Source: Cladosporium halotolerans (Eukaryota). From it: a stretch of 64,000 bases of DNA. This document shows, piece after piece, positions 22,304-28,139 of the stretch. A program made the position numbers and the translations under genes. The stretch is taken from positions 744,001 through 808,000 of the forward strand of contig NW_027191458.1 in NCBI RefSeq assembly GCF_011745625.1. The letters are read 5' to 3'. Position 1 is the first letter of the stretch; every line of letters starts with the position of its first letter. The notes beneath the pieces were generated by a model. It was not told where the DNA came from, made no database searches, and saw only the letters and a program-made list of their open reading frames with translations.

Positions 22304-23875
22304 CTACTTCTCGCTCTTGAGCGTCGGGAGCTCCTTCACGGCCTCGGCGATGATCTTCAGGGCAGTCTTGATCTGGTCCTCGTCGATGACAAGAGGCGGC
22401 GCGAGACGGATGATGTTCTGATGGGTGGGCTTGGCCTGCGGAGGAAACGTTATGTTAGCGTCAGGTCGATCGACGGAGGTCGCAGTCGTGGCCCTCTCCT
22501 CAGCAGCCGCACCAGTGTGTCCAGTAGTTCCGGACCCTATGGTGGGGTCTATGGGCTCCATGGACACAGTTGGCAGGGCAGCTGAGGTAGTGGAGGACTT
22601 GAAATGAGCGATTTTGAGGGCACGGCCTACCAGAAGTCCCTTCTCCTTCATCAACATGCACAGATCCCACGCACTGTGGCCACCGGTCTTCGACTCGTCG
22701 ATAATGATGGCGTTGAGCAGACCCTTGCCACGGATGGTGGTGATCATGGGGTCTTGCTTCTGGATGTCGCGCAGGCCTTGACGGAAGATCTCGCCGAGGC
22801 GCTCGGCACGCTCTGTGAGTTGCTCCTCTTCCACGATCTCGAGTGCCTTGATAGCCACAGCAGAGCCCAGAGGGTTACCGCCGTATGTCGAGCCGTGGGT
22901 GCCGGGCTCGATGGTGAGCATGACATCCTTCCTGCCGAGGACGCAGGACACAGGGTACATGCCACCAGAGATAGCCTTGCCGAGCAGGACAATGTCTGGC
23001 TTGATGCCTGACCACTCGTGGCAGAGCAGCTTGCCGGTTCTGGCGATACCAGTCTGGATCTCGTCGACCATCATGAGGACATTGTGCTTGTCGCAGAGCT
23101 GGCGCACACGGCGCAGGTAGTCCTCGTCGGGAACCACAATTCCAGCCTCGCCCTGAATGGGCTCGACAAGGAACCCAGCAACCTCCTTGCCGTGCGCCTC
23201 GAAGGCAGCCTCAAGCGCCTCGACATCGTTGTAGGGAATCGCCTTTCCAGTCGCCGGGCAGTAGGCGCCGACACCAGGCAGGTAAGGGCCGTAGTTCTCT
23301 CTGCTCTCGGGATCGGTCGACATGGTGATCGCCGCGAAAGTCCTGCCGTGGAAGTTCTCCTGGACGCTGAAGACCAGTGCCTTGTCCTTGGGGATGCCCT
23401 TACTCTTGTAGCCCCACTTGCGCGCGATCTTGACGGCGGTCTCGACGGCCTCGGCGCCGGTGTTCATGGGCAGCACCATGTCGAAGCCGGTCATGCTGGT
23501 GATCTTCTCGGCGAACTTGGGGAAGACATCGTTGTAGAATGCTCTGCTGCTGAGCGTCAGACGGCTGGCTTGGTCCACGAGCGCCTGGATCAGCTTCGGG
23601 TGGCAGTGGCCCTGGTTGACGGCGGAGTAGGCAGAGAGGAAGTCGAGGTAGTGCTTGCCCTCGGGATCCCACACGCTGCATCCTTGCGCTTTGGCGAACA
23701 CAATGGGCAGAGGGTGGTAGTTGTGCGCGGCGTATGCGGCCTCAGAGGTCATAGCCTCTTTCGATGTGGAAGCATGGTATGAGGAGGTTTGGGTGGGCGG
23801 TGTGAATGTGGCAGCTTTGGCATTGAGGTTGCTGTCGACGCCATTGCCGTTTGTCTCGACCGCCATGGGTGCCAT
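22304..23875 (-). CDS. car2: Ornithine aminotransferase, class III PLP-dependent (intron 22436-22630)
   Basis: Motifs [63 protein letters not shown] (PLP Lys), [30 protein letters not shown] is restored by removing GTAGGC..GCTAAC..CAG. Confidence 0.97.
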
Positions 23876-24153
23876 GTTGTGCGGTTGTCGGAAGATACAA
23901 GTAGAGTGAGCGCCGGCGTGGGGTAGTGGAGGGGTAAATGCTGGGGATATCGGTGAATTATTGGCGCGAGGAACACGTGGGAAGTTTGAGTGAATCTTAT
24001 CGCGGAGAGAATCAAGGAAAATGAACTGGACGGCGGGTTGATCGCCAGATCTTATACCACAGGCGACGGGCGAGGGCGACAGAACTCAACCACGGCGTGG
24101 GCGATGGCAAACGGGCCCCTCCCCACCGCGCGGCAGCCAATCGCGGAGGATTT

Positions 24154-24236
24154 TGGTTATACCTGCGCTTAAGGAATGTCGTCTGGCTATTCCTGCGCTT
24201 AGGAGGCAGCGAGATGGCTCGGCCTGCACTTAGGGG
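24154..24236. promoter_or_regulatory. Three tandem degenerate copies of TGGYT-N3-CCTGCRCTTA(A)GG at 30/31-bp spacing upstream of car2
   Basis: tggttatacctgcgcttaagg (24154), tggctattcctgcgcttagg (24184), tggctcggcctgcacttagg (24215). Adjacent CCAAT (~24137) and a CreA-type CCCCAC (24121). A regulatory role is inferred. Confidence 0.5.
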
Positions 24237-24924
24237 AATTCGTATGACTTATATCAACCCCTAGACTTTCTCGCCCGGATACGCTCGCGATAGTCATGTG
24301 CCCGTGGCTCCACCATGACCGCGCCGCTTAGTCGCGGCAATCTCGTAATGTGTGATTGGGCGGTTGCGCCGCGACGCTGCGGTATCGCCGGCGAGAGTCT
24401 TCTGGTCGTTGTTCTACCTACGCCGTCTGCGCTGGCCTGCGATTCTCACGTGCGAGCCGACATCAAGGTGTACTACTCTGCCCGGCCGTGGCCTCACCCA
24501 CGCCCATGCAGGTACCCAGCAAATCAGATCATCTCTGCATCCCCAGACATCACATTCTGGCCACACGAGGATTCAAGCCACCCGTTGCACGACTTGGCTT
24601 GCTGGTGAGCCGCACAAGGGTGGCCATAAGCCGCCGGCATTTTCGCCGAGGTCGCTCGGACACCAATGCTGGAATAACAACTCTGGCAAACGCTGAAACG
24701 CAAGCATCACAAAGCGTACAGCACTACAAATGGCATGTGAGGCAAAAACGCAGGTGACCGCCCTCGCCACGGAATCCCGGTGTTAAGGGGAGACTCGGCG
24801 AGGGGGCCTAAAAGACGCCGCTGGGATTCGTTCTGGCCCGCCAATATGACCATCCAGTCCATCGAAATACGGTCTAGTGGTTGATTATGCGTTCCGTTTC
24901 GTTATGAAATGTGTGTAAGGAGAG

Positions 24925-25290
24925 AAAAAGGAAGCGCTCGCGAGCGCAAGCGAGAATTGCATTTTGTGCAGCCAGCCTCCCACGCCAAGCGTCTGGCTTC
25001 TCCTCCGCGGTCGGTCCGTGCCTGCACCGTCGCTCTACTTTTCTTCGGAACTTCGCTGGCGGAACCGTCCTCTCTTCACCAACAAGCAACAGCACCTCGT
25101 GCCTTCGCTCGCACACTCGCTGCGAGCCGAAAGCACAAAGCTGCGTTGCTCTGCCAAGGTAGGTACCGCGCTCGCCAGGACTCTCGCTTCCGCAAGCAGG
25201 TTCCCTCCGAGTACGAACACGACAGCACAATGTCACCCACGATTTGCCTGCTTCCTGGCTCCCAAACATAGCCAGGCAGCTTACTTCATC
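24925..25290 (-). ncRNA. Candidate structured non-coding RNA of unassigned family
   Basis: Contiguous hand-identified helices: 25254-60/25270-76, 25194-200/25247-53, 25182-89/24948-55, 25173-78/25056-61, a long hairpin 25085-25150, and ~24970-24998. G-U pairs in the long hairpin work only on the minus strand. A T5 run lies at 24929-24925. Confidence 0.5.
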
Positions 25291-26000
25291 ATATCAGTGG
25301 AAGATAAACCCCCCGCTTGGGGGCGGCGATTAGCAGCGCCGCGTCTTCTCCACCCTTCGCTCTGCGTTTTTATCAGAGTACAAGGACTAATACAGGACGA
25401 ACATACCCGTAGCTATTTTGATTCTTTAGTGGAATTCGTGGAACGTGAAGTACCCGTCGCTGGGCGTCTGTTAGTCTGGCTTGGACCTATCGAACATGCC
25501 TTGAAATGCTGTCGAGCATCTGACGAGCATTTGTGCGGACGAATGCCGTCGCCAGAGCTCCAGTGCATGTCTCGTTGCCCAAAGATCCGTGTGGTAGGTT
25601 GTCACGCCTTGTGCACACCTCGTCTTCTCAAATCACTGTATGAATGCATAATGCTACTTCAATCTGGACTACATATGCTTTTATCATTTCCAACCCAAGA
25701 AGGGTCCAAGCGATGCACGGCGATGCTAGCAAAGTCCTTCAATCGACACAAAAGGAACCGTCCCAATGCAATGGGGTGTAGTCAAAAGGGTAGAAGACAA
25801 GAAGGGAAGCCGTTCCAGAATCGAAGAATCGAAAAGCAAGCGCCAAACAAAAAAAGAAAAATCCATCGTACATGAACCCCATCCAGAGAATCGAAGAGAA
25901 AAAGAAGCTTCTCCGACTCTTCCCCGCTTTCATTCATATGCCAATCCATCCAAACAAGCAAATAGAAAACCATACATCATCCTCGTCCTCATCCTCATCC

Positions 26001-28139
26001 TCATCTCACATACCTTGCGCTCAACCCCGCAAACGCATCCGGGCTGTGTCGCCCGCTGCCCGCGAAGCCCTGGAAGTCCGCGCTCTCGTGGCTCACGTGC
26101 CTGGTGCCGCCGCTGTGCATGGCGGGCGGGGGCTGGGCCTGCTGCTGCGCGAAGGGGTTCATCGTGCCGCTAAGGGGCATCGTGGCGCTGCGCTGGGGGA
26201 GTTGCGAGGCCTGCTGTTGTTGCTGGGGAGCCGCCATGGGAGCGGGGATGCTGTCTTCGGGGAGCGTCTGGAGCGGTCGCTGGGGTGCGAGGTGCGGGTA
26301 GTTGTAGAGGGCGAGGATGGAGGATTTGTCGGAGCGTGGTGGGTTGGATGCAAATTGTTGCTGGGCGAATTGTTGCTGCTGCGGCTGCATTTGCTGCTGC
26401 TGGAGTGGGGGCGCCATTTGCTGCGGTTGTTGCGGTGCTTGCTGCTGGGGCATGCCTGTCTGCTGCGGAGCCAGCTGCGTCTGCCAGAAGGGGTTTTGCG
26501 TGGATTGAGGCGACAGGGTTCGTGCGGTCTGCTGAGGTACCATGGGCTGTGTCTGGTACATTTGCTGTTGCTGCTGGACTTGTGGCTGCTGAGGTGCACT
26601 GAAAAAGTCTTCCTGCTTGCCGTAGACTGGCTGAGGAGACTGCATCATCGGCTGCTGCTGCAAGAAGTTTGGTTGAGCGGGTGCCTGTGGCTGCTGCTGC
26701 CATGACATCCCGAATGGGTTGCTGGTCTTCTGTGTTGGCGGAGACTGCGATTGCGGCTCCATAGGCTGCGCCCATGGGTTGCTGGGCGTGAAAACCTGCG
26801 ATCTCGAGGTTCGGAGGAAAGGATTGCCAGTTTGCTGAGGTGAAATCATGGATTGTTGCTGCTGTTGCGGTTGTTGATATTGTTGACCATACGCGGCGGT
26901 GGTAATAGGCTGTTGCGGCATCTGCTGACCGCCCCATGGGTTGGTGGGTTGCTGCCAGGGATTGCTCTGAAACTGTGCTTGCGGTTGAGCGTTCTGCGGT
27001 TGAGCGTACTGCTGCTGTACCGGCATTGGCTGAGACACCTGCAAGTTCTGGAAACTTTGCTCAAGCGGCTGCTGTGTTGGCGCTTGAGGCAGGAAAGGGT
27101 TCCAGTTTCCAGTGGGTATCGCGGCGCTCGTGGATCTTGTATTGGTCTGAGGTAAGGGTACCGTGGCTGACCTCTGTGTCTGCTGCTCGTCCAGCGCTTC
27201 CCACGGATCAGATGACGCCTTGTTCTCTTGCTGCCGCCTCTTTTCGACCGTGATACCGTTCAGTCCAGAGCTGCTCATTGACACAGGCGTCAAAGCCCTG
27301 GCACTCGACGCCTCTGTCCTTGTCGGCGCTTTGTGTTCCTCAGCCAAAATGTCCACGGCTCTATCCAGGACTCCATTCGTGCTCTTCAGAACTTCGGAAT
27401 TCCTCCTGCTATCCGTAAAGCCCATGTCGCGCAAAGTCGCCAGCTTCTGGTCGAAGTTATTGCTCACGCTCGTTATCCTCATCCCGAAAATCTGGCTTGG
27501 CTTGCTCGACTGAACATCCATAGGCTCTGCTGCCCGCTCGCTCCCGTTGTATGTCGGCGAAAGAGGAGGCGTGAAAACATCCTGCTTTCGGCGTCCTCCA
27601 AAGGACGAGCTCGCAGAACGCAGACTGAATCCAAACTTCTTGCCCGGCTTCGGTGGCAGAGGAGGCGGTTCGTCTCCAACTGATCCCGTGCTCGTGCTGC
27701 CTGTGTAATGCTGCGCCGCGGCCGGCCTTTGGCCTCCTCCGCCGTTACCACCCGAGAAGGACCTGTATTCGTACTTCTGCCGAATGTATCTCTCCAGAAC
27801 ACCATCGACCTCGTCAACATCAATAGGGATCTCAGCCTTCACGTTCTGCGGGTTGTAGAGCTTGTTCGAAGCGGCGTTTCCAGTCTTCTTCATAGAGTCC
27901 ACCTGCTCCGTGCCCCAGGTGTCCATACTCAGGCTTTTCACTTTGCTGACGTGCGTACCCAGCTTCCTGTGCAGGGCCGCGCAGCGCATGCACAAGAAAA
28001 TGCCTAGGTTCCAGCTGGCCCATCCTGGATTCTTTGCGCTGCAGTCCGCGCATCGGTCGTTACCCGGAACGGAGCGAATGAGGTCCTGGAGCGCCTTCTC
28101 ATGGCGGGCTTGCTGTCGCTTGGAGATTGCCGAGGCCAT
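26001..28139 (-). CDS. ArfGAP plus UBA domain protein (Gts1/Ucp3-like) with a Gln-rich NPF/NPW-repeat tail
   Basis: ArfGAP zinc finger CADC-x16-CMRC followed by [20 protein letters not shown]-like [24 protein letters not shown]. Multiple NPF/NPW motifs. Start [14 protein letters not shown]. Confidence 0.92.

Follow-up and report, generated by a model that had tools for sequence, protein, structure and literature searches.

A probable compact cluster of three box H/ACA guide RNAs between an ArfGAP-domain gene and a car2-like gene of Cladosporium halotolerans

The region considered here lies within a window of 64,000 nucleotides from Cladosporium halotolerans (contig NW_027191458.1, positions 744,001 to 808,000 of the forward strand; all coordinates below are those of the window). 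On the minus strand an ArfGAP-domain gene (28373-26001; Pfam ArfGap, E 1.6e-36) is followed, after a gap of 2.1 kb, by a gene for a class-III aminotransferase (23875-22304; Pfam E 2.9e-121), an ornithine aminotransferase of the car2 type whose closest named relative is that of Cladosporium fusiforme at 87% identity, with other Dothideomycetes next; relatives 85-89% identical in this enzyme occur on contigs of up to 68 kb. The stretch is also present in public air, dust and surface metagenomes. A first-pass annotation had marked positions 24925-25290 of the gap as one highly structured, stand-alone RNA of about 360 nt read from the minus strand. Open reading frames (ORFs) cross this span on both strands (131 amino acids on the minus strand and 303 on the plus strand), but they have no Pfam match and resemble junk, and a homologue search with the 131-residue ORF was empty. 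Three units can instead be described in the gap, each with features of a box H/ACA small nucleolar RNA (snoRNA): A, 161 nt on the plus strand (25246-25406); M, about 270 nt on the minus strand, with predicted ends at 25180 and 24911; and B, about 170 nt, assigned to the minus strand (24733-24906). M lies inside the span, A overlaps the first 45 nt of it and B begins about 20 nt past its end.

Twenty-four public sequencing runs are listed for 24700-25500, and 6 of these, from 6 studies, are RNA libraries. The share of sampled words that matched was 0.17-0.18 in 5 of the RNA runs and 0.28 in the other. Contigs from three of them (X15, X17 and X18) and from a DNA-like run (X2) were compared with 23000-27000. 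X15, X17 and X18, which come from three studies, gave one contig each at B, of 162-166 nt, running from 24739/24741 to 24901/24906 with 0 mismatches and no loose ends; the DNA-like run X2 reads through these contig ends. The three further RNA runs have a matching word share of 0.17-0.18 for B, word share being the only measure in their case. X15 gave in addition a 157-nt contig at 25246-25402 with 1 mismatch. Elsewhere in the 4 kb the RNA runs produced only short imperfect matches (3-8 mismatches) to the flanking coding regions. RNA contigs from several studies that stop at one place are a weak hint of real RNA ends, and our interpretation of these contigs is that the span is flanked by two discrete small RNAs, A (25246 to about 25406) and B (about 24740 to 24906). 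The presence of stand-alone non-coding RNA at this locus, as first claimed, is borne out.

The span itself had been described as almost entirely helical, and the motif strings named in that description are all present (26 of 26) on the minus strand at or beside the places given for them. They include a long-range stem of 8 bp joining AAGCGAGA (25189-25182) to UCUCGCUU (24955-24948), the stem closing a long arm, CUGGCG (25178-25173) with CGCCAG (25061-25056), and the short motifs AGAAAA (25044-25039), ACA (24967-24965), UUUUU (24929-24925) and AUGAUGA (25292-25286). Relative to mononucleotide shuffles, the span contains 40 self-complementary 6-mers against 15.4 ± 5.0 (0 of 300 shuffles having as many), 13 self-complementary 7-mers against 4.1 (1 of 300) and 2 self-complementary 8-mers against 0.96 (78 of 300). 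Since so many shuffles reach the 8-mer count, the 8-bp long-range stem is at the chance level, and the AAGCAGG/CCUGCUU helix, which had been proposed to close a domain, is there too. Folding the 366 nt as one unit gave a z-score of -1.60 on the minus strand, with 7 of 100 dinucleotide shuffles as good, and of -2.55 on the plus strand, with 2 of 100 as good, which gives no backing to a single folded unit on the minus strand. A sliding fold scan of 23900-26089, covering both strands in 35 windows of 150 nt, gave one strong outlier, 25040-25189 on the minus strand, which is the long arm, with z -4.62 (0 of 100 shuffles) against -1.84 for the plus strand. The arm has 46 pairs on the minus strand, including 6 G-U pairs and no A-C juxtaposition, and its energy is -63.1 kcal/mol on the minus strand versus -43.9 on the plus strand. 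The suggestion that the G-U pairs of the arm mark the minus strand is upheld (6 of 6, roughly p 0.03), and with the stability outlier seen on the minus strand only, this bias supports the minus strand as the sense strand for the arm. Chance is exceeded in the span by the long arm and by an overall surplus of short inverted repeats; the proposed fold as a whole does not exceed it.

Guide-target complementarity was examined with stand-in ribosomal RNA (rRNA). A prokaryote genome collection was scanned with a 17-nt fungal large-subunit (LSU) primer, giving 55 loci (L005-L059), many of which are eukaryotic ribosomal DNA (rDNA) contaminants. The matching contigs, at least 55 in number, are filed under bacterial or archaeal assemblies, and the many that carry complete eukaryotic rDNA (e.g. 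L013, L029 and L053) represent contamination. Fungal-type loci were chosen by the spacing of primer sites: L029 and L053 for the small subunit (SSU), L013 for the whole unit, with introns, and L006, L012, L032 and L053 for parts of the LSU. The rDNA found in viral contigs amounted to 103 nt of LSU only. The hairpins of M and B were proposed by a structure scan before any rRNA search was made. An unconstrained guide search, which returned hundreds of matches of 12-13 bp, was useless and was set aside.

Unit A, the source of the 157-nt contig in X15, folds on the plus strand with a z-score of -3.43 (0 of 200 shuffles). Its 3' guide hairpin has a lower stem of 6 bp (25342-25347 with 25394-25399) and a pocket formed by 25348-25353 and 25386-25393. 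The ACA box at 25401-25403 stands 15 nt away from the pocket top, and the predicted 3' end at 25406, 3 nt past the box, lies 4 nt beyond the contig end at 25402. There are two candidates for an ANANNA hinge box, AUAUCA (25291-25296) and AGAUAA (25302-25307), and the 5' hairpin (25250-25280) has no open pocket. The guide pocket is complementary to helix 34 of 18S rRNA over 11 bp, with 0 G-U pairs, around one U in 5 rDNA loci, and matches as good were found in 0 of 5000 and 2 of 3000 rRNA shuffles. The target U follows the NS1 primer site by 1,266-1,274 nt, and a CCG lies 10 nt to its 5' side. This CCG of helix 34 is presumably the site of acetylated C1280; if so, its spacing from the target makes the latter about U1290, which we take to be the yeast 18S pseudouridine guided by snR83. 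The pocket of A would then bracket the same U as Saccharomyces cerevisiae snR83/Ruf3, a likeness of role. That helix 34 contains acetyl-C1280, and that snR83 is named near this helix, is found in excerpts of one report (PMC5464676). Excerpts of another describe the snR83 family as specific to Saccharomyces (PMC5824354), so A would be a functional analogue of snR83 and not a homologue.

The closest likeness of A to an annotated family is to Schizosaccharomyces pombe snR92 (Rfam RF01444), which aligns with 25306-25406 on the plus strand at 13.9 bits and E 5.5, the gathering score of the family being 80. The 3' hairpin of A aligns, its two pocket strands agree with the consensus at every position, and there is an ACA at the end. 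Because the pocket strands are identical, A and snR92 would have the same predicted target. The two differ in the 5' half, which is unaligned (64 model positions versus 23 nt of A), and in two extra small hairpins that A has between the hinge and the 3' hairpin. With A placed on the plus strand, the first 45 or so nucleotides of the span as it was drawn, with the CCUGGCU/AGCCAGG hairpin (25276-25254), the 'A box' and AUGAUGA, become the antisense of the 5' half of a different snoRNA. A contig of X2, which represents another lineage, joins 25406 to 25659 with the omission of 252 nt, the deletion beginning exactly at the predicted 3' end of A.

The candidate unit M has the long arm as its 5' hairpin (25056-25178, 46 bp with 6 G-U, closed by CUGGCG/CGCCAG). 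The hinge contains AGAAAA (25039-25044), which fits ANANNA, and is followed by the 3' guide hairpin (24917-25005) closed by GAGGAGA/UCUCCUU, a 7-bp stem of 25005-24999 with 24923-24917 that leads to pocket strands at 24998-24995 and 24932-24924. An ACA box (24914-24916) comes directly after the guide hairpin, 16 nt from the pocket top, and the predicted 3' end is at 24911. This hairpin is the best-energy geometry for that ACA, and the order hairpin, ANANNA, hairpin, ACA is complete, with an unusually long hinge. Of 23 loci scanned, 4 of fungal type have an LSU rRNA stretch that pairs with the pocket over 13 bp (1 G-U) on both sides of a U, and 5 more match its 9-bp core; 3 of 3000 rRNA shuffles gave a match as good. 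The predicted target is in the middle of the LSU rRNA; measured from primer sites, it falls about 1,296 nt 3' of LR3 and about 500 nt 3' of LR7. In the other lineage represented by X2 there are 3 base differences and 1 gap in 241 over 25018-25259, and one base is omitted at 24930, on the edge of the U-rich pocket strand of M; by our reading this leaves the guide paired with a spacing of 15 nt. The earlier proposal of an H/ACA-like RNA is therefore right as to class, given the long arm, AGAAAA, a hairpin with ACA and a pocket that matches LSU rRNA, but not as to the ACA at 24967-24965, the predicted functional one being that at 24916-24914, which closes a larger hairpin. The single unit of about 360 nt was drawn too widely, the span being mostly M and its 5' end consisting of the antisense of A plus a spacer.

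This spacer of about 65 nt (25181-25245) lies between A (plus strand) and M (minus strand), at the 5' end of each. It contains GUUCGUACUC, the 'B box' of the first-pass annotation, and the CCUGCUU arm, and nothing above chance was found in it. Over 25210-25199 a minus-strand RNA would pair perfectly, for 12 nt, with an LSU stretch beside the LR5 primer site that is universally conserved and was seen in 13 loci; about 0.5 such complements are expected by chance, and this one is without flanking C/D boxes.

Unit B is placed on the minus strand because of its ACA box and its guide match. Its 3' guide hairpin (24741-24819) has a lower stem of 24819-24816 with 24744-24741 and a pocket formed by 24813-24808 and 24756-24747, and the ACA box (24736-24738) lies 18 nt from the pocket top, the RNA contigs falling short of it by 1-3 nt. 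At the H-box position there is AGAACG (24829-24834), whose last base, G, does not fit ANANNA. In the LSU rRNA of L013 the pocket has a 16-bp match (1 G-U) that brackets a U of the 3' third, and 0 of 3000 rRNA shuffles gave a match as good. The 27-nt apical loop of this hairpin may pair over 7 bp with the hinge upstream (24771-24780 with 24820-24829), a possible pseudoknot whose occurrence is about chance (estimate 0.07). A metagenome scan with a 20-mer of B found one locus that shared nothing else with it, a chance match. Other classes were considered for B and dropped. Neither a C nor a D box is present in B on either strand, AUGAUGA (25292-25286) being antisense inside A, so that a box C/D reading was rejected; for an snR4-like acetylation guide the boxes were not found and the long duplex predictions were meaningless; and an Sm-site small nuclear RNA, a short interspersed element and intron and 5'-exon readings were discarded by eye.

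The closeness of M and B raises the possibility that they are one composite RNA of four hairpins, a tandem double H/ACA, or that such a precursor leaves only B as a stable product. At most about 4-9 nt separate the 3' end predicted for M (24911) from the 5' ends of the B contigs (24906/24901), and B is without a proper H box of its own, both of which would fit such an arrangement. However, in three independent RNA runs the contigs begin at 24901-24906, contain nothing of M and have no loose ends, and we regard a composite RNA as improbable.

The significance of the guide matches depends on how the search is made. In a structure-first control, the best-energy hairpin was taken for each ACA box and only then compared with rRNA. 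At the real locus 2 of 12 units reached the score, these being A and M, against 2 of 1,768 units from shuffled sequence; among 135 shuffled loci, 2 had one such unit and 0 had two. A permissive pipeline that allows all geometries is far less selective: 214 of 366 shuffled loci gave a match at least equal to those of A or M, and 11 of 366 gave one at least equal to that of B (S>=14). Support for the units therefore comes from the structure-first control and the RNA contigs. For B the relevant figure is the rate per box, roughly 0.002, because the RNA contig end had singled out its ACA beforehand. Shape by itself is no evidence, and this includes the pattern of AGAAAA followed by the ACA at 24967, since a simple scanner for the H/ACA shape fails to tell real sequence from shuffled: shuffles gave about 2 units per strand at a score of at least 22, and 16% of shuffled ACA boxes reached the score of B. 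The targets of A, M and B are all in conserved mature rRNA and none is in a spacer.

The above results suggest that the gap between the ArfGAP and car2-like genes probably holds three closely spaced box H/ACA guide RNAs, A, M and B, for rRNA pseudouridylation. In each unit the internal loop of the 3' hairpin would pair with rRNA on both sides of one uridine, with the ACA box following. By the established H/ACA mechanism, the guide RNA would bind Cbf5, Nop10, Nhp2 and Gar1, and Cbf5 would convert the unpaired uridine to pseudouridine. The predicted sites are a U in 18S helix 34 for A, a U in the middle of the LSU for M and a U in the 3' third of the LSU for B. M and B stand head to tail with a gap of at most about 4 nt and, because B follows M within a few nucleotides, probably derive from a single precursor transcribed from the minus strand, whereas A runs in the opposite direction, divergently.

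A number of observations weigh against the cluster. RNA libraries may contain DNA and the contigs carry no strand information. The rDNA used came from contaminant contigs in prokaryote assemblies and not from the organism itself, and the two search results given above, the frequent matches of the permissive pipeline and the failure of the shape scanner to discriminate, belong here as well. No rRNA target was found for the 5' hairpin of A, M or B, and the snR92 match of A is not significant on its own. For B, the hinge (24834-24820) contains no ANANNA, the spacing from pocket to ACA is 18 nt against the canonical 14-16 with a lower stem of only 4 bp, the contigs end 6-8 nt short of the predicted 3' end, and the target is seen in one locus, L013, which is the sole fungal-type locus reaching that far, the non-fungal loci being different there. 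For M, the fold of the whole unit has a z-score of -1.02, 28 of 200 shuffles being as good, and the hinge is long, with 11 nt before AGAAAA and 33 nt after it before the 3' hairpin begins. Finally, no contig of X15, X17 or X18 covers 24907-25245, though A and B reach a depth of 8-9 in X15; such a gap proves nothing.

These last points bear mostly on M, and they would be explained if only A and B were real, the span being a spacer, leader or promoter, the long arm an RNase III processing stem or a decayed DNA palindrome, and the match of M to LSU rRNA a coincidence. The missing contig, the weak fold and odd hinge of M, its 5' hairpin with no target and the ease with which the permissive pipeline finds matches of the quality of M in over half of shuffled loci are all in keeping with this. 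Set against it are the rarity of an M-quality match when structure is fixed first (the 2 in 1,768 shuffled units and 3 in 3000 rRNA shuffles already given), the canonical geometry of M, with its 7-bp lower stem, 16 nt to the ACA and ANANNA upstream, a target in conserved mature LSU and the bias of all six G-U pairs of the arm, which points to an RNA on the same strand. Given these, a locus with A and B as its only RNAs is unlikely, though it is the most serious competitor of the three-unit cluster.

The remaining explanation is that first proposed, namely a single minus-strand RNA, structured and stand-alone, that would be at least 360 nt long and belong to the RNase P/MRP, signal recognition particle (SRP) or other RNA polymerase III (Pol III) kind. 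There are many helices, and their order of stem, arm and GAAGUUCCG is as the first-pass annotation described, recalling RNase P/MRP RNA in having a long helix-loop-helix arm, then a GAAG-U-rich single strand and a complementary stretch further 3'. In addition, CGGAAC within ACGAAACGGAACGCAUAAUC at 24903-24884 could form a P4-like helix of 6 bp, and the 668-nt stretch 24735-25402 folds with z -3.19, from 20 shuffles only. The P4-like pairing GUUCCG/CGGAAC (24896-24891) was nonetheless rejected, having no bulged U and drawing its CGGAAC from the leader of the next snoRNA, B. The 8-bp stem closes before the CR-V-like element, which breaks the order of the P/MRP topology; the CR-I-like stretch does not fit the consensus; and candidate P1/P2 pairings of 10 bp (AAAAACGCAG/CUGCGUUUUU) and 9 bp (GUGGGUGAC/GUCACCUGC) were dropped by eye.

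Searches for known families agree with these rejections. Rfam 15 over the whole window gave nothing at gathering scores, and at E<=10 there was no match over 24400-25800, only the weak matches to snR92 and HOTTIP over 24725-25410 (686 nt), and only chance microRNA matches over 24722-24925 (204 nt) and 24905-25255 (351 nt). The P/MRP echo thus has no Rfam match at E 10 on 686, 351 or 204 nt, and the same is true of SRP. The Pol III assignment fares no better: no tRNA or transfer-messenger RNA gene was found in the scan. The 'A box' is inside snoRNA A, which is on the opposite strand, the UUUUU at 24929-24925 that might have been a terminator is the guide strand of M, and the T5 of B was rejected as a terminator since RNA contigs extend 5-7 nt beyond it. 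No telomeric template was found, a TTAGGG-type 9-mer being absent from the window, and no piece of the region has a second copy there. The RNA contigs, moreover, divide the region among separate molecules, of which one is on the opposite strand, and a single RNA of this kind is very improbable.

The three-unit cluster has partial parallels among fungal RNAs. According to excerpts of PMC5824354, some S. pombe H/ACA families extend to Pezizomycotina, and polycistronic clusters of fungal snoRNAs are known, one being the conserved box C/D cluster snR77-snR73. Such clusters consist of head-to-tail snoRNAs cut from one precursor, as proposed here for M and B; the present case differs in having H/ACA members, an M-B spacer of only a few nucleotides and a third member, A, on the other strand. 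Unannotated H/ACA snoRNAs of Pezizomycotina, together with 'intergenic structures' having an H box only, were found by covariation (Gao, Jones and Rivas 2021, PMC8216456). As described in that work, these are intergenic RNAs of H/ACA type in filamentous ascomycetes, and in some of them only one guide hairpin accompanies the H box, the set of boxes being incomplete like that of B. The likeness to A, M and B is one of description, and none of them was matched through Rfam 15. In a small literature search no published account of A, M or B was found.

A, M and B would belong to an ordinary kind of gene, and one newly recognised at this locus. They are three candidate pseudouridylation guides missed by Rfam 15 in a ubiquitous airborne fungus, so an annotation gap is filled and three modification sites are predicted. 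The combination of guide-target complementarity with public RNA-library contigs can resolve a helix-dense region which covariance-model libraries miss. For specialists the unexpected parts are only the departures of B from the H/ACA rules and the nearly abutting pair of M and B. A bolder proposal would be that M and B come from one precursor that is split in the spacer of about 4 nt, or exist as a transient four-hairpin tandem, and that B is a functional and abundant guide despite AGAACG and a spacing of 18 nt; the 46-bp 5' hairpin of M might in addition serve as the signal by which the cluster is processed. This is doubtful as a whole; if B did function in this way, the accepted box and spacing rules for eukaryotic H/ACA ribonucleoproteins would widen.

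Some minor observations concern the flanks of the cluster. The second-best outlier of the sliding fold scan is 25460-25609 on the minus strand, with z -2.97 (1 of 100 shuffles); it lies between snoRNA A and the stop codon of the ArfGAP gene and is possibly part of the 3' untranslated region of that gene. Within the ArfGAP coding sequence, 26368-26402 and 26853-26885 have imperfect matches, with 3-4 mismatches per ~33 nt, to unrelated RNA contigs that carry repeats of the CTG/GTT type at the ends which do not match; such matches account for the only further coverage in the RNA runs. On the other side of the cluster, GGTATAAGA at 24050-24060 on the minus strand is likely to be the TATA box of the car2-like gene, being about 180 nt upstream of the ATG at 23875.

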